From a virus: DNA of 64,000 nucleotides. Where the stretch lies: the IMG/VR virus record IMGVR_UViG_3300013102_000002, positions 1-64,000 of that record; one strand, written 5' to 3'. Within the stretch, counting starts at the first letter, position 1. Every line of letters begins with the position of its first letter. Of this stretch, positions 28,179 to 36,960 are shown piece by piece. The position numbers and the translations under genes were made by a program. Below the pieces are notes generated by a model. It searched no databases and was not told the DNA's origin. It saw only the letters and a list, made by a program, of their open reading frames with translations.

Positions 28179-31100
28179 TTATCTTCTTTGACTTGTAATA
28201 AGATGTTCCAATCCAGTAAGAAATTCAGTTGGGTTGTCTGCCTTGACTGTAATTGGGCCAGTGAATGTATAACTAGGTCCACCAGCAACTGCAGGAGTGG
28301 ATTTATTAAATGTAATTCCAGACATTGCTCCAGTAAGATTACTCATAACAGAACCGACAATATCTCTAGAACGAGAGAACATGTTTTTGAGAATATCTTG
28401 ATGATTTTTTGTTAAAACAAGTTCACCATCTTCAAGAATGGCAGGAACCTCATTTGATTTAAGAGGTTCTTTTCCTGCTGTGCCTCCTGTGTGATAAACC
28501 CACTGAGTACCATCCCAATGCTTACCCTTAACTGCTTCCTGCAATTGCTCCATTATTGGAGTAGAGATAACTTTATCTTGTTCTGCTTGCATTTTGGCAA
28601 TTTCTTCTGGGGATAGAACATAATAGTTGGGGCTATTAGGGTCTACATAAGGATTCGAAGAAGATGAAGAAGGGGAAGATTGAGACATTGCGGCATTCGC
28701 AGCGTTAGCCATTTCAGCATATAACTGCTTTAGCTTCTCAAGTTTAGAGATGACTTGATTGATATAAGTATCCCAATTACTCAAAGATAAGCTTTGCCAA
28801 TTATTTACTACACCTTCAAGTAAAGTTGTAGCCTCAGAAGCAGTAATCGTACCATCCTCTAAACCTTGCTGAATTGCTGCTTGGAACTGATCAAGTTTAT
28901 TCTGAGTATCCGTAACAGTTTGATCATAGAGAGAGGAGAGAGAGGACTGATATAATTTCAGTGCTTCTAAATCGGCTTGATGAATTGCTTTAGTCTTCTC
29001 AAGATTAGCGTTAAGAATTTCAACTTCAGAATCCTTAGCTTTCTGTAGACGATCAATTTCATTCTGGATAGCAGATTTTACATCTTCACGTTCATACTGC
29101 TTAACGAGATCATCTTTCTGCTTCTCCAACTCATCAACTCTGGCTTTATCATAGGTGAGGATTAGTTCACCAGATTCAGTGACATACTCAAAGCGCTTAT
29201 CATTCTTAACCTTATTCAACTCGTCATTGATGTCCTGGAGTTCTTTTAAACGATCCTCTTTTTCAATCTGATCGTCTAAATTATCGAGAACAGTTTGTTG
29301 AGCTTCAATTTGAGAATCATAATACTTCTCACGAGTTTTGATGAGTTCAGACAATGCTGCTTCTTCTTTGGAATAGCGGAGTTCAGTATCACGAACAGTA
29401 TTGTTGACTTCATCAAGTTTAGTTTTGAGTGAGGAGATAAGAGCGACTTGGGAGTTAATTTGAGCAGAGAGAGAAGAAAGGTTGCTGAATGAGACGTTAT
29501 CCATGTCCTGATAAAAGTTGAGTGCAGATTTTACTTGAGTTGCAATATCTTTTACTTTAGAGGCATAATCGGATAAATCAGAACGAGTAGAAGAGGTAGT
29601 ATCTACAAAGGAAACATTTGTGAGATACTTTTTATCTGCCTCATCTAGAGTGGCGATAATGGAGTCGATGGAGTCAGAAAATTCAGATAGATCAAGAAGA
29701 GAGTCGGGACCAATTGAAGATTTTAGAGTGTCGAATAGGGAAGAGAGGGCTTTGGAGGAGAAGTCGATTGCCGCCCTAGTCGCTTCTCTGATTGCAAGCG
29801 ATGTATCATACCAAGTATCATTGTTAGCCTTTAATTGAGCATTTAGGGCTTCTAATTGCTCTGTGGTTAATTTGTCTGCTGTCTTCGCATTTTCACTCTG
29901 CTTAATTCTAGCCTTAATGGATTCAGTGTCCTTTTCAACTGCCGCCAACTTTTCCCTATATAAGTCAATCTGCTTTTTAAGTTCACTGCGATAGTCAGCA
30001 GAATCCTCATTGAGTAAACTTTGGACATCTTTAGAGTCATCAACTTTATCCTGAATCTTCTCATAAGACTTGCTCATCTTATCGAGCCATACATTGGTAT
30101 TCTCAAGTTTCTGATTATCCAATGTCTTTTGTGATTCTTTCTGTGCTGCTATGTTATCAGTTATGGCAGTCTTATTTTCTCTGATAGCTTTTGTATACAT
30201 CTGAAACTGATCAAACTGTTTTTGCAACGCTTCTTGTGCCGTTTTAGACTTCATGGAATTATATAGATTGGTAAATGAAGTGGTGGCTTCTCCATTAGCA
30301 TCTATCCATGAAATCATACTATATTGCTTTGCTTTGGCTTGAACTTCATCTCTGGCCGCAATTAGTTTTGTATTGGCTTGTTGAAGTTTTGTGGTCTCTA
30401 GTTTTTGTCCTTTAAGAAGATTAGTAGTTTGTTCAATAGCAGCAGGATAATTTTTATCTGACTCATACCCAGATGACTTTTCTTTATACAGGGCATTAAG
30501 TTTAGTTTGAGCATCTGCTTCGGCATTTATGGCGTTAATACGCTGTTCGGTGGCATCTTTAAACTCTGCTAAGTCTTTATCTTTTTCTGACTTGGTTTTG
30601 TCTTTTGATGTTTTTTCTTTATCCTTTGATGATCCAGTTTCAGCCGCAGTTGCACTATAGTCAGCCGAAATATAGTTTAATAAACCAAGTTTGGCTTGAA
30701 GGCCAGCCAATGTCTGTTTTTCGGCAGTCAACCCAATTGAATCACTTTTATCCTTAGCAATAGTTCCTAATCTTCGTTCAGCTTCGAGATCAGTCATTTC
30801 TCCACTATTTACTAAAGCTCCATAGGCATTTCTAAGTTTATCAATGGCTCTCATTTCGGCTTCCATTGTAGCAATTCTGTCTGTAGCATTTTGGATAAGA
30901 TTTTTTGTCTTTTCTATTTCAGAGTTAATAGAAGAAACTCGTTCTTGCTCCTTCTTTCTCATATAAGCTACAATAGCATCCTTGCCTAAACCAACAACAC
31001 TGGTAAAGTCACCAAAAGTCTCAGTTAATTTAGCTAAGGTCTCAACAGATAAATATCCCTTATCTGCCATTTCTCCTTGGGCAGTATTAATGAGGTCAAT

Positions 31101-34100
31101 TTCACTCTTACCATTGGCAACTGATTTGCTAAATGCATCCATTTGAGAGGTTGAGCCACCAACAACATCATCCAGAATGTCCATTGCTTCTGATAAAGTT
31201 AATATCTTATCTTCAGCGTCACTCAACGAATCGGCGGCACCATCAGCGCCATCATTAACTCCTTGGAAATTTAATTGGCTGATCGCTGTTTGAAGGATGT
31301 TAAATTGATCTTTTGTTAATTTTGCAGACCCAGCAAATCTTTCGAGTGATGCTACTGCGTCATCCATACTATTAACTTTTGTATTCTGGAAAATACTGAA
31401 AACTTCATTTTTATATTTTGCAAGTATATCCAAATCATCAGTTTTAGCGGTTGCCATAATAGAAGCGAATCCATCAGCTAAGACTCTTGTAGATGCCTTG
31501 ACCTCTGTACCACCAGCTTCAATGGTATCCGCATAAGCACTAAATTGAGCTTTAAACGCTTGTTCGCGCTTGCTTACTGCCTTGTCGAACTCGGTTCCAG
31601 CGGAATCAAACTTATCTTTTGCGTCAAGAATGGCCTGTGCTATTGATTCTGAAATAACATCCAACCCAGAAGTATCATAATCAGAAGGGTTGACTTCAAG
31701 TTGGTAGGGAGCAAAGTTACCAAGTTGACCCTTATCATTTTTAATTGTCTGTTTGTTTGCAATGCTACTTTCGAGTTGCTCTTGCATTTTAGATAAAGAA
31801 TCAATTTCGGCTTGTGCAGAATTCTTTTTTGCCTGTTGACTCTCAATCTCAGAATTAATTGCTGTTTTGTTGGCCTTGTACTCATCTAATGCCTTTTGTT
31901 GCTCAATTGCTGCCTCTTCTTTGAGCGCTTTAATTCTGTCTCCAATAGCAAGTGTATTTTCTTTTACCGCTACTGTCTGATCTTCAACTGTGCTCATGGT
32001 GATGCCATGCTTGGCTGCTAGATCAGATTCGACGCTTGCTAATCTTATTTTCTCTTCGGTGTTTAAAATCGTTTTTTTGGTTAGATTATCATATTCATTC
32101 GATAATTCTTGTAGCTCTTTTAGACTCCCGGTTTTATCTTTAAGTTTATCTAAGCTAGTTCCAGTATCGTCCATCACTTCAGAAGCATTAGAGAAATGAC
32201 CTATAACTTTTTCGAGTATAAACCCCAATCCAGCAAATGCAACCCCAACTAAACTACTGACAAGCAAAGCTCTAAGGCCAATTTTAACCGCTCCTAAGAC
32301 GACTGTCATTCTACTTAGTGCTCCAGATGCAGCAGAAGCAGAAGTGGTTATACCAAATAGATTAATAATAAATGCCTTAAACGAAGCATTTAAGAGATAT
32401 ACTCCAGAGGCAATTACACCAAAAATAACAGGAAGAGCACCAAATGTATCGACAGTTTTTGTTAGGGCGCTACCTAATCCTGTCATTAGCGAGGTAAGGA
32501 CTACAATTGAATCAGATATTAAAGCATTACCAACGGAGAGGGAGAGGGTGTCCCAGGCTGTCTTCATCTTTTGTATTCTGGCTTCCAAGGATTGCATGAA
32601 CTTGGTATTTTCGGATACGGCAGAACCTTGTGAGTGTAACGCGGTCTCTGTTGCATTTAAAGAAATCTGATAGTTCTGCATGAGGGCAAGAAACCTAGAT
32701 AATTGAAATCTCAAATCTGTTACTTTCAGAATTGAATATTCAATTCCTACTGACTGCATTTTAATCAATGCAGCGGAAATGGTTCTTCTTAAAAGTGTCT
32801 TTACACTTGACCATCTCTCTCTATATTACTATAGAGGTCAGACTGTAATTTTATCTCTAAATGTTTAGAGATAGCCAACGTTCAGTCGTTACGGTTCGAG
32901 TTCTATTCAAATAGAACAATTACCTCGGTATTGTCCCTGTATAATAAAACAAGCTATATAGATTAAAGGTATCCCATTTGGACGATCAATCATATATTTG
33001 GCTGGTTTACAGTAGGAGTTTCACCGATATGGTTGGCAGTTCACTAATTAATCGCTTAATTAGGGGGCAGATTTTTTACCCGCGAGACTGACAGCAGTTG
33101 ACTGCTGTTGTTCCTTGGAAAGACTAGACCAGCGAGAGGCCAAATCTACCAGTATGTCAGATACATCTCGTGTTTCTCCGCTTAAATCCCTCATCTGAAC
33201 TCCAACCCCAGCAAGCACAGACTCGGAATCTTTCATGGTGGTTAAACGTGAATATATTGTTTTCAGTGAGTTCGATCTGTTATTTTCATTATGCTTATAA
33301 ACATAATTACTGACCGTAATCAGAACATTACGGCAAGAACGATTCTTCGATCGTTCCTCTCTATGTCTCCATAGAGTGCAGACTATCGCTTTATCCGGTC
33401 TGGATATCTCTACACTTAGTCGTTCACGGTGTATTTAAACTTCCGCCCTGTCTTCCTGTTTATAAGGAGTTCCAAGTCAATCAGTAGAGATTTTTCACTA
33501 ATATGTTCCCATACTAGGCGGCAACTATTTTACCGACCACTGAACCACTTTCACGTGTTGCTGTAGTAATGGCTGTCGTATTCCCGATTAACTCTTCCAT
33601 TGTTACGCCAAAAGCCTTAGCTGAAGCGCCTGCCTTTGTGATACTTAAAGCAATGTTTTGAGAGGAAATAGCAAAGTTATTATCACATTCTGTTACTTTC
33701 AGATTCTTCTTTTTGAGAATCTTACTGACTATATTCATTTTAAAATATAGCGGAGAAAACTCTTCGGATTTCTCTCTTTATGTCTCCATAAAGTTCAGAC
33801 TATCGCTTCATCCTATGTAGTAAATAGGAGCCTTTTCACTTAGTCGTTCACGCTGCTCTCGCTTGCGCCCTGTTGCCGTCACCATAGTGTGTTACGGTCT
33901 CCAAGTCAATCAGAAAAGGTTTTTCACTATACATTACTGTATAAGGAGGCAGAAATTTTTTACCTCGTTGATTTTATTTGCAACTTCAATGCTCTTACTA
34001 GCTTCCACATTAAACACCGTCATAGCAGACGTTAAAGTGTCTACGGCTTCAGCAGGAGTCAAATCTGATATATTCTGAAACAATGTTGCAGTTTTTGCTA

Positions 34101-35637
34101 GTTCAATTGTTTGACTTTCATCAAATCCCATCCGGGCAAAACCAATGGCGTTCTCATTTACTTCTTTAATACTTCGACCCAATTCATTCGCTAATTCAAT
34201 GCTTTTCTCTAACATGCTATCAAAATCTGTATCGTTATCCATTACGCGCTTTAATTGCGTAATTTGGCTATCCACATCGATGATTGTTCTTGTCATTTCT
34301 TTTAGTGCGCTAGTTATCCCAAAGAATACACTTCCTACTCCAGAATAGAGTAAGATATTTGACATTGCAGATTTTAAACTATCTCCAAACGTACGAGTGT
34401 GACCAGAAGTTGCTCTTGCTTCGTCTCCAATCTGTCTAATTTCGGCAACGAGTTGAGCGGCTTTAGCCTTATAATTATCAGTCGAAGTAGTTAGATTTTT
34501 TAATTGCGTCAATAGCAAATTTAGCTTTGTGGTGTCAATTTTAGAATAAGCACTGCTTAAACTTGCCACTTTCTGCTCGGCCTTGGTTTGAATCGATATT
34601 AATTCTTGTTCTGCTTTCATTTGTCTAGAGGCAAGGTCGTTTAGGGCTTTAATTCTGCGGTTAATACCATTCAGTTCACTATCTGTAAGTTGCCGACCAG
34701 ATGCTTGAATCATTGCAATTCTTTGTGCAACTTCATCATATTTACGATTAAGCAAATCTAATGCTTTTGTATTTTCAACACCAGTAACAGCAGTCGTTTT
34801 ACTCGTTGCTAATTTACTGTTTAAGTTGGTATATGTTTTAGCATCCTGAATTTCACGTTCGCGAATAGCTTTTAAATACCAATCCTCATATGCCTTTCTT
34901 GTTTGTTGGGTGCGAGAAATCTCAGCCCGTTCTAAGTCAGCATTATTCTGAATCGCTCTCTGTTGGCTCTCATTCCATTGACGCTCAAAATCCCTAGTCT
35001 TAGATTCGGCGGTAATTCTTCCTTGAGCCATTTGTTCAGCCAATGCCAATTCTGTTTTAGAATTTTTTGTAATTTCATTTAATTGATTTTGATTCCAGTG
35101 TCGCTGGAAGTCACGAACTCTTGATTCAGAAGCAATTCTACCTTCAGCCATTTTATTGATTAAAGACTGAAGTTCTTTTGCGTCTTTTATTTGATTCTGT
35201 ATATTGTCTATATTCTTAATGGAGCCATCGGGAAGAGTGGTTACTACCTGTTTTGCGTTTGTTTCTGTGCTTCCATATGTAGTTGTTTTAATTCCTTTAC
35301 TATTTGTTTTCTCGCGTTCAATCTGCCACTTTTTTTCAGCAGCAATAGCTTCGTTTGTTACCTTAATTTGTTCGTTAATACTTTTTGTAGTAGTATTTAA
35401 CCCATTATTAAGAGTATTGTTGGCTGAACTCTGCTGATTAATTTGTGACGTAATTAAATTAAGATTCTTAGAGAACGAGGAGAGGTTCTTAATAAAATCA
35501 TCGTTAATAGTTATATTTAACTTTAGCTTTTGAAGAGACGGATGCTTGCTCAGTTGTTCAATCGACTTATTGATATCTTTTTCTGCGCGGCTTAAATCGA
35601 GTGCAGCACTTATCAAAATCTTCATGTTATCAGCCAT
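28179..35637 (-). CDS. Tail tape measure protein, 2185 aa, spliced: join(33962..35637, 33532..33685, 33078..33272, 28179..32711)
   Basis: Removing three introns fuses four exons in frame and rebuilds INEV|DNNFAIS, RESGSVVG|NSLKTIYSR, SLAG|RFQLSRFLALM; C-terminal YHTGG..EVPAILEDGE. Confidence 0.92.
32712..33077 (-). ncRNA. Group I intron 3 of TMP gene (366 nt, no ORF)
   Basis: Exon ends in U, intron ends in G; P1 GCCC/GGGU; P10 AAAUCU/AGAUUU; P3 GCCAAC/GUUGGC; P7 GACUG/CAGUC. Confidence 0.9.
33273..33531 (-). ncRNA. Group I intron 2 of TMP gene (259 nt, no ORF)
   Basis: P1 GCCG/CGGU; P10 AGUU/AACU; P3 UCUCUAC/GUAGAGA; R CGUGAACGACUAAGUG; S GCGAUAGUCUG; terminal G. Confidence 0.92.
33686..33961 (-). 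ncRNA. Group I intron 1 of TMP gene (276 nt, no ORF)
   Basis: P1 GCCUC/GAGGU; P3 CCUUUUC/GAAAAGG; R CGUGAACGACUAAGUG; S GCGAUAGUCUG; terminal G. Confidence 0.92.
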
Positions 35638-35677
35638 TATATTCAAATCACTTCCTTTTACTTACTTTTGGGCAAAC

Positions 35678-35718: not shown

Positions 35719-36960
35719 TTATATAATTTGCTTGAAAATTTCATCTAATGTTTTATTTTCTAAATCTCCAGGAAAGATAAAAATGCAATTGTCAATGTAT
35801 CCCCATGAACTAAGATTTGATATTTTTTTCTTTGCTTTTTTTATATATTTATAAATGAATGGATTATTCAATTGTTGAGAACTCCAAAGACCAAAATACT
35901 CAATATAATATTCTCTGCCGTTATAACTAACTACCCAATCAAGTCTTCTTCTGGTTTGATCTTTATCGAAATAGTCACGGTAGAGAGGATGACTGATATA
36001 TTGTATGCCTTTTGAAATAAACCAGTTCGAGATAATCATTTCAGGTATAGAATCACATCTATTTCCTTCAGAATCGACGATCAGATTATCATAGTAGTCA
36101 TCTTCTGAATAATTTGGTCCAAGTCTCTTTTTGAGGTGATATTCTCTTAAATATTTTCTTTCACATTCCTCACAATAACGATGAATATTTTCAACATCGT
36201 TAAAATTTGTACGAAACTTGGATGTCTCAAGCCAATCTTTACAGGATGAACAATATGCGGCTCCCTGGATAAGTAACTCATTTTTCAATCTTATTGTAAC
36301 TTTCCCGTTTTTTCTACTTTTCATTTCTACATTAAGATCCCAACATTCTTTGCATCTTGTTCTAAACCCATTCCTATCTCTATAGAAGAATTGATCGTTC
36401 TCTGGTAATATTTTATTGCAATCTTTACAAATTCTCTTTTCTCCTTCTAATTTAAACTTATGAAGATGATTATATCTTTTGATTTTAAGTGTTTTTGTGG
36501 CGTATGCTCTAATGGTTGAATATTTTCTATGACTTAGTTTCTCAGCAATTTCATCTTCTGGAGTGAATGCGAAATTTTCTTTTAAATAATCAATTTCCCA
36601 CCGTTCCCATTTTTGTTTCTTTGATGCTCTGTGTAATCCAAGTTCATTTCTTTTATATCTAATCGAGTCAATTGTTTTATTTAATTCTTTTGATAGTTGT
36701 TCATCGTCATATTTTTCCCAGTTGACTTGCAGACAAATCAACTCTTCTTCTGCCCACATGGTATTGTTTGGTGTTGCGCCCATAAGAATGACGATTTCAT
36801 TCCATTTTTTGTTGTTATAGAATTTAGTATATTGATATGAAGATATAAAACCATCGGTTGCTTTTAGAGAGTTTTTACCTGGAACCCTACCATATTCGCT
36901 ATAATATCTCCAAAAATTATCATATAAAGTTTTGTAGTCCAATTTAATTACACCTCGCAA
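35719..36960 (-). CDS. Free-standing homing-endonuclease-like protein (W..EE helical repeats, CxxC fingers, C-terminal PD-(D/E)xK-like nuclease)
   Basis: WAEEE/WERWE repeats; CKDC..CKEC, CSSC..CEEC; CDSIPEMIISNWF...RLDW...IEYFG. Confidence 0.65.
   Translation of the reverse strand: MRGVIKLDYKTLYDNFWRYYSEYGRVPGKNSLKATDGFISSYQYTKFYNNKKWNEIVILMGATPNNTMWAEEELICLQVNWEKYDDEQLSKELNKTIDSIRYKRNELGLHRASKKQKWERWEIDYLKENFAFTPEDEIAEKLSHRKYSTIRAYATKTLKIKRYNHLHKFKLEGEKRICKDCNKILPENDQFFYRDRNGFRTRCKECWDLNVEMKSRKNGKVTIRLKNELLIQGAAYCSSCKDWLETSKFRTNFNDVENIHRYCEECERKYLREYHLKKRLGPNYSEDDYYDNLIVDSEGNRCDSIPEMIISNWFISKGIQYISHPLYRDYFDKDQTRRRLDWVVSYNGREYYIEYFGLWSSQQLNNPFIYKYIKKAKKKISNLSSWGYIDNCIFIFPGDLENKTLDEIFKQII

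Follow-up and report, generated by a model that had tools for sequence, protein, structure and literature searches.

The tape measure protein (TMP) gene of a large phage known from a soil metagenome is divided into four exons by three group I introns, all on the minus strand. The host record, IMG/VR virus IMGVR_UViG_3300013102_000002, comprises 174,510 bp with direct terminal repeats and is rated 100% complete, its likely source being a rhizosphere metagenome; the window analyzed here is its first 64,000 nucleotides, and positions refer to this window. Judged from their sequences, the three introns are real but ordinary, and the same introns occur, at identical sites, in related phages and prophages. 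They very probably form one family of compact ORF-less group I ribozymes, and two ORFs of 570 and 1529 aa, together with two short pieces, are in all likelihood the exons of a single YomI-like TMP gene. What is new here is modest: in a large soil phage, one domain holds three such introns, and they belong to a wider tape-measure intron family. The features of the gene are collected in Table 1.

Table 1. Exons and introns of the phage TMP gene, and same-family introns in the TMP genes of relatives
Feature	Genome	Positions	Strand	Description
TMP exon 1	this phage	33962..35646	-	1685 nt; PHROG 4211 E 7.5e-57; 3' end ...GAGGU
Group I intron 1	this phage	33686..33961	-	276 nt, ORF-less, codon phase 2 (GT-T)
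TMP exon 2	this phage	33532..33685	-	154 nt; colinear with YomI and L007
Group I intron 2	this phage	33273..33531	-	259 nt, ORF-less, phase 0; sixth codon an in-frame TAG
TMP exon 3	this phage	33078..33272	-	195 nt (65 codons), phase 0 at either end
Group I intron 3	this phage	32712..33077	-	366 nt, ORF-less, phase 0
TMP exon 4	this phage	28179..32711	-	4533 nt; PHROG 4211 E 2.5e-80; colinear with YomI
Site 1	Microcystis phage MaeS			1313-nt intron with 265-aa ORF
Site 2	viral contig L008			1404-nt intron with 362-aa ORF
Sites 1 and 2	Paenibacillus barcinonensis prophage			same-family introns
Site 2	Bacillus pumilus			same-family intron
Site 3	Paenibacillus sp. NPDC057886			same-family intron

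Both the 570-aa ORF (35646-33934, minus strand) and the 1529-aa ORF (32768-28179, minus strand) match tape measure PHROG 4211, and the 1.25 kb between them contains all three introns. Excision of the introns at the boundaries given in Table 1 produces a stop-free frame of 6567 nt, which encodes 2188 aa from the TTG at 35646; counted from the ATG at 35637, the spliced frame is 6558 nt (2185 aa), as in the original prediction, which had treated these pieces as one gene with an unbroken frame. The junction peptides that had been foreseen, INEV-DNNFAIS, SVVG-NSLKTIYSR, and SLAG-RFQLSRF, were rebuilt in silico; in the spliced RNA, the joins would read GAGGU-UGAUAA, UCGGU-AACUCA, and CGGGU-AGAUUU. 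In the alignment of the spliced TMP with the uninterrupted SPbeta YomI, a single HSP covers query residues 3-461 of a 501-residue spliced stretch, and NEVDNN, VGNSLKTI, and QLSRF are restored across the junctions, with no gap at any of the three. The same gene is also uninterrupted in a close relative, L007 (complete genome, 166,580 bp), whose product shares 88% amino acid identity with the spliced TMP (78.6% nucleotide identity over 1500 nt) and aligns ungapped at three of three junctions; no intron of the tape-measure family was found in the whole genome of this relative. Because the L007 gene is uninterrupted and the alignment ungapped, the splice sites are fixed to the nucleotide. The first three exons tile the PhageMin_Tail domain PF10145, with exons 1, 2, and 3 matching profile positions 3-87, 87-135, and 136-201 (of 201), respectively; the match of exon 1 lies at its residues 485-564, and that of exon 3 has an E value of 1.3e-8. 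All three introns thus lie in or at the edge of one conserved domain, which agrees with their predicted placement in the most conserved TMP segment. The C-terminal, cell-wall-lytic part of exon 4 gives an endolysin match (PHROG 669) at residues 1112-1528.

Two of the checks proposed along with the original prediction, a group I covariance search and an alignment to intronless TMP homologs, bear it out, the latter by the ungapped junctions with YomI and L007 and the former by three matches to the Rfam model RF00028 (gathering score, 50 bits) at the positions of the three predicted introns. The match of intron 3 (33087-32819; 72.9 bits, E 4e-18) is above the gathering score, and those of intron 1 (33971-33776; 48.9 bits, E 6e-11) and intron 2 (33541-33359; 35.8 bits, E 5e-7) are below it. 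With the family model R1, scores of 260.5 and 262.3 bits were obtained for introns 1 and 2, respectively, both of which belong to the R1 training set. No group I matches beyond these three were returned by the RF00028 scan of the complete 174,510-bp genome. The introns contain no internal ORF of at least 40 aa, and a query with the endonuclease protein of a relative gave nothing significant in any of them and no remnant in intron 3.

The anatomy of the introns was found to be as predicted in its main elements, including a U·G pair at every 5' splice site, G as the last intron nucleotide, P3 helices that differ in sequence but pair, a covarying P7, and a common 3' tail indicative of one family. 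P1 is formed by exon GAGGU and guide GCCUC (33950-33946) in intron 1, by CGGU and GCCG (33522-33519) in intron 2, and by GGGU and GCCC (33068-33065) in intron 3; the final U of all three 5' exons stands opposite the first guide G as an invariant U·G, and covariation with the site is seen in the pair at exon position -4 (A-U, C-G, and G-C). All three introns end in G (33686 in intron 1 and 32712 in intron 3). P10 is weak in intron 1 and comprises 4 bp (AGUU/AACU) in intron 2 and 6 bp (AAAUCU/AGAUUU) in intron 3. The P3 helices are CCUUUUC/GAAAAGG, UCUCUAC/GUAGAGA, and GCCAAC/GUUGGC in introns 1, 2, and 3, respectively. P7 is GACUA/UAGUC in intron 1 (33845-33841/33802-33798) and intron 2 (33421-33417/33385-33381) and GACUG/CAGUC in intron 3 (32887-32883/32845-32841), an A-U to G-C swap. 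After P7, the three introns have a common layout that consists of P9, P9.1, P9.1a, a single-stranded UCAGUA, P9.2, and GAAARUAACAGA, such that the tail GUCAGUA-hairpin-GAAARUAACAG is present in each, and UCUG next to P7 pairs as P9.0 with CAGA located 5-6 nt before the intron end. Intron 3 has a larger P5/P6 region (P4-P6) than introns 1 and 2 and a branched P9.1. Introns 1 and 2 are 66-67% identical to each other, and each is 58% identical to intron 3. Subgroup IA2, in the 1990 classification attributed to Michel and Westhof, is said to comprise the typical phage introns and to be marked by the extra helices P7.1/P7.2 between P7 and P3'. By this criterion, neither helix was seen in any of the three introns, in all of which P3' follows the 5' strand of P7 after only 2 nt (AG or AA).

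Compensatory changes support the predicted fold. Among the three introns alone, 22 of the 62 predicted pairs are compensated by double changes, the hairpin sequences differing while the pairing is kept. Across 13 family members, in an alignment that was fitted to the model and hence favors its pairing score, 94.5% of the cells are paired versus 30-48% with slid partners, and double changes occur in 39 of 55 pairs; none of 500 shuffles reaches this. Double changes affect five of the seven P3 pairs across these members, and helices 3-5, corresponding to P4-P6, are 95-100% paired, with double changes in 10 of 14 pairs. The covariance model was used in place of MAFFT, which misaligned P1-P2 when the compact and large intron types were aligned together. 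A long-range pairing of GUCAGUA with UACUG near P3, suggested by RNAalifold, was rejected, as its tail side does not vary, introns of the intron-3 type have no partner for it, and the pairing is broken in one member.

A splicing pathway can be proposed for the three introns, the activity of which is predicted from these features. After late transcription, each intron would fold, and free guanosine would cut after the last U of the exon, which the guide keeps in place through a U·G pair. The freed exon end would then attack after the terminal G of the intron to join the exons. Without splicing, exon 1 is read to a TAA stop codon at 33936-33934, and reading into introns 1, 2, and 3 ends at a stop after 9, 6, and 6 codons, respectively. 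Since reading of unspliced RNA would end within the first 6-9 codons of every intron, the full TMP needs the removal of all three introns, and only RNA free of them would be translatable into the 2188-aa protein.

Introns of the same family, located at the same sites and ending in the GUCAGUA-hairpin-GAAAGUAACAG tail, are present in the Paenibacillus prophages G003, G057, G035, and L106, in B. pumilus (L115), in L008, and in MaeS. Rfam overlooked clear family members in L113, L115, L008, and MaeS; a missing Rfam match is therefore no proof of absence. A family covariance model trained on five compact members gave matches in 5 of 93 Paenibacillus genomes. In the prophage of G057, one of these five genomes (C27:28706-31370; loci L123, L118, and L125), the TMP gene has four interruptions, three of which are family introns at sites 1, 2, and 3 and the last of which is a 1.4-kb insertion at a fourth site, and in the G035 prophage, sites 1 and 2 are occupied and the fourth probably is too. 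The fourth-site insertion of 1.4 kb, found in P. barcinonensis and P. illinoisensis, lies between residues 189 and 190 of the 501-residue query; it begins with a matching guide (TTCGGT/GCCG) and a 5' end like that of intron 3, and it matches neither Rfam nor R1. The TMP gene of the P. barcinonensis CECT 7022 prophage thereby has three interruptions. Occupancy thus varies between relatives from 0 to 4 interruptions. The intron ORFs of L008 and MaeS, which are 34% identical to each other, match DUF559/Vsr-type nucleases, in contrast to the introns of the present phage, which are without such an endonuclease ORF. The 1404-nt in-frame insertion of L008 was also considered as an intein, which was ruled out because it is full of stops. 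MaeS is listed as a cyanophage, and its TMP gene is of the Bacillus type.

Among 140 phage records with a TMP homolog, 132 have one match that covers at least 80% of the query, and among the 60 records listed, a TMP split into two pieces was seen only in Geobacillus virus E3. In E3, a group I intron (RF00028, 48.7 bits) occupies NEV-DNN, the site of intron 1; unlike the introns described here, it is single and of a different ribozyme lineage, with no R1 match and without the common tail. A megablast search of the region against the phage collection gave no matches, and in a blastn search of the same collection with intron 1 as the query, only short stretches of the core were matched, in unrelated phages. 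No paper describing this tape-measure intron family in these relatives was found in a literature search.

Several further observations concern introns in related genes. The same GUCAGUA-hairpin-GAAAGUAACAG tail was found at L073:514-684 (minus strand; R1, 69 bits) inside a phage capsid gene (PF13252), and the family is thus not strictly tied to tape measure genes. In two viral contigs, L028 (4663-5350) and L047, the TMP is only 26% identical and two group I introns stand in tandem where PF10145 ends, one with an RF00028 score of 73.5 bits and the second with a match to the family model, so that the end of this domain looks like a recurrent target. The homologous TMP gene of a Saccharibacillus deserti prophage (L112:2345-3003) is interrupted directly after NEVDNNF, four codons from site 1, by a group II intron that has no ORF and measures about 660 nt (RF02004, 104 bits; RF00029, 62 bits); Tourasse and Kolsto (2008; PMC2504315) remarked that no group II introns had been found in phages. 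In an 890-nt soil contig, the starts of exon 2 and exon 3 are found at the spacing expected without intron 2 (143 nt), with a loose end ...NEV before DNN, which hints at an intronless relative, the matches being of 18 and 25 nt only. None of the runs listed as containing the stretch was an RNA run, and comparison of four DNA runs with it revealed no joints.

TMP introns and a phage gene with three introns are already published. Tourasse and Kolsto (2008; PMC2504315) described the group I introns TMP-IVS1, IVS2, and IVS3 at three sites in TMP genes of B. cereus-group prophages, among them introns at two of the sites that are 80% identical and differ by an adapted P1; most of the introns contain no endonuclease gene, and stop codons appear in their first 27 nt. 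They resemble introns 1-3 in occupying three TMP sites with site-adapted P1, in mostly lacking endonucleases, and in their early stops. In contrast, at most two introns per gene were reported there versus three within 1.25 kb here, their hosts are of a different phage type from the 174-kb genome with its YomI-like protein, and they were called IA1/IA2, whereas introns 1-3 show no P7.1/P7.2. The IVS3b intron of pBWB404 follows PF10145 position 201 behind a GGT codon, which is the position of site 3 here; its ribozyme matches neither Rfam nor R1, pointing to a lineage unrelated to introns 1-3. According to Landthaler and Shub (1999), as cited in PMC11878797, orf142 of phage Twort, a tail tube gene, has three group I introns and undergoes exon skipping. 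As far as that account goes, Twort orf142 is like the present TMP gene in that three related introns interrupt one structural gene of a Firmicutes phage and leave short internal exons; the host gene is another one, and splicing and skipping were demonstrated experimentally in Twort, whereas here splicing is predicted from the sequence. Exon skipping was reported in 47% of SIOphi polymerase transcripts (PMC11878797). The TMP gene is frequently interrupted in phages, and the splicing of the TMP transcript of Vibrio phage ICP1 was observed by RNA-seq and RT-PCR (Barth et al. 2023; PMC10448857). ICP1 thus shares an interrupted tape measure gene with the present phage; it differs in having one intron (two in one isolate), each with an HNH endonuclease gene, and in its Gram-negative host.

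Comparison of the introns across genomes bears on their history. Intron 2 is 77-78% identical to the site-2 introns of two Paenibacillus prophages versus 66% to intron 1. In the tree, site-2 and site-3 introns group across genomes, some supports being weak (0.09-0.9); exceptions are intron 1 of the present phage, which stands apart from other site-1 introns, and the site-1 intron of G035, which falls within the site-3 group. The introns thus tend to cluster with others of their site rather than with those of their own genome, a pattern that argues against recent spread within this phage. As to the predicted colonization of three sites by one family, the single family holds, and the colonization was not a recent event in this phage, each intron being closer to same-site relatives elsewhere. 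A homing history can be envisaged in which the introns would have entered conserved PF10145 sites by endonuclease-driven homing and the DUF559/Vsr-like endonuclease gene, still carried by same-site relatives, would later have been lost here. Their persistence may be due to adequate splicing together with the rarity of precise loss. As a possible helper endonuclease, a 413-aa ORF upstream of the TMP gene (35719-36960, minus strand) was considered; it has zinc-finger-like CxxC pairs and a weak similarity to the Vsr-like endonuclease of relatives (E 0.002, one pair). This candidate was rejected, as it does not track the introns: the intronless relative G001 and E3 both have homologs, but the L008 genome has none.

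A regulatory role would assign the introns a different meaning. Splicing could serve as a GTP/Mg-sensitive checkpoint that times tail assembly, or cross-splicing could generate a shorter TMP isoform without exon 3. As originally noted, exon 3 is 195 nt long, and with its two ends in phase its skipping would keep the product in frame; moreover, the 3' ends and P9.0 are common to all three of the introns, and the skipping of exons by related group I introns was reported in Twort orf142 and SIOphi (PMC11878797). However, the loss of exon 3 would take PF10145 positions 136-201 with it, pairing of the intron 2 guide with exon 4 is poor, the close relative L007 works without introns, and intron presence varies freely among relatives, which makes such control very unlikely. 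Occupancy of 0 to 4 sites fits parasites rather than a built-in control device, and the three introns are accordingly best seen as tolerated genetic parasites of the most conserved part of the TMP, not as regulators.

It is, if anything, still less likely that one or more of the introns no longer splices and that the gene is dead or expressed in pieces in a defective phage. The scores of introns 1 and 2 under the Rfam cut-off and the metagenomic derivation of the genome could be taken in this sense, but the core helices all pair and covary, the 6.5-kb frame is intact once the introns are removed, the genome is complete with terminal repeats, and several genomes retain orthologous introns at these sites. 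An assembly artefact, in which intron repeats caused false joins or inflated the intron count, has next to no probability, for although two long Logan contigs from the run that is the likely source break off within intron 2, at 33499 and 33513, the introns are only 58-67% identical and too different to be collapsed or duplicated in assembly, an independent soil run contains 33521-33949 nearly unchanged, and isolate genomes show the same exon-intron layout. For the contig ends at 33499-33513, no exact 31-nt repeat between the introns is evident.

Tolerated introns of this kind leave what is known of this type of system unchanged, and their interest lies in the family. In (pro)phages of Paenibacillus and Bacillus, intron lineages tend to follow the site, four PF10145 sites are used, and up to four interruptions occur per gene, three of them by this family. 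Public records split such TMP genes, as in E3, where GP42 and GP43 are given as "N-terminal" and "C-terminal", and elsewhere, as in MaeS, the pieces are recorded as hypothetical proteins. The intron series suits the study of guide adaptation to new sites and of endonuclease gain and loss. If splicing proceeds as predicted, the present gene is a clear example of how several self-splicing introns, clustered in one conserved domain, can be tolerated by an essential structural gene.
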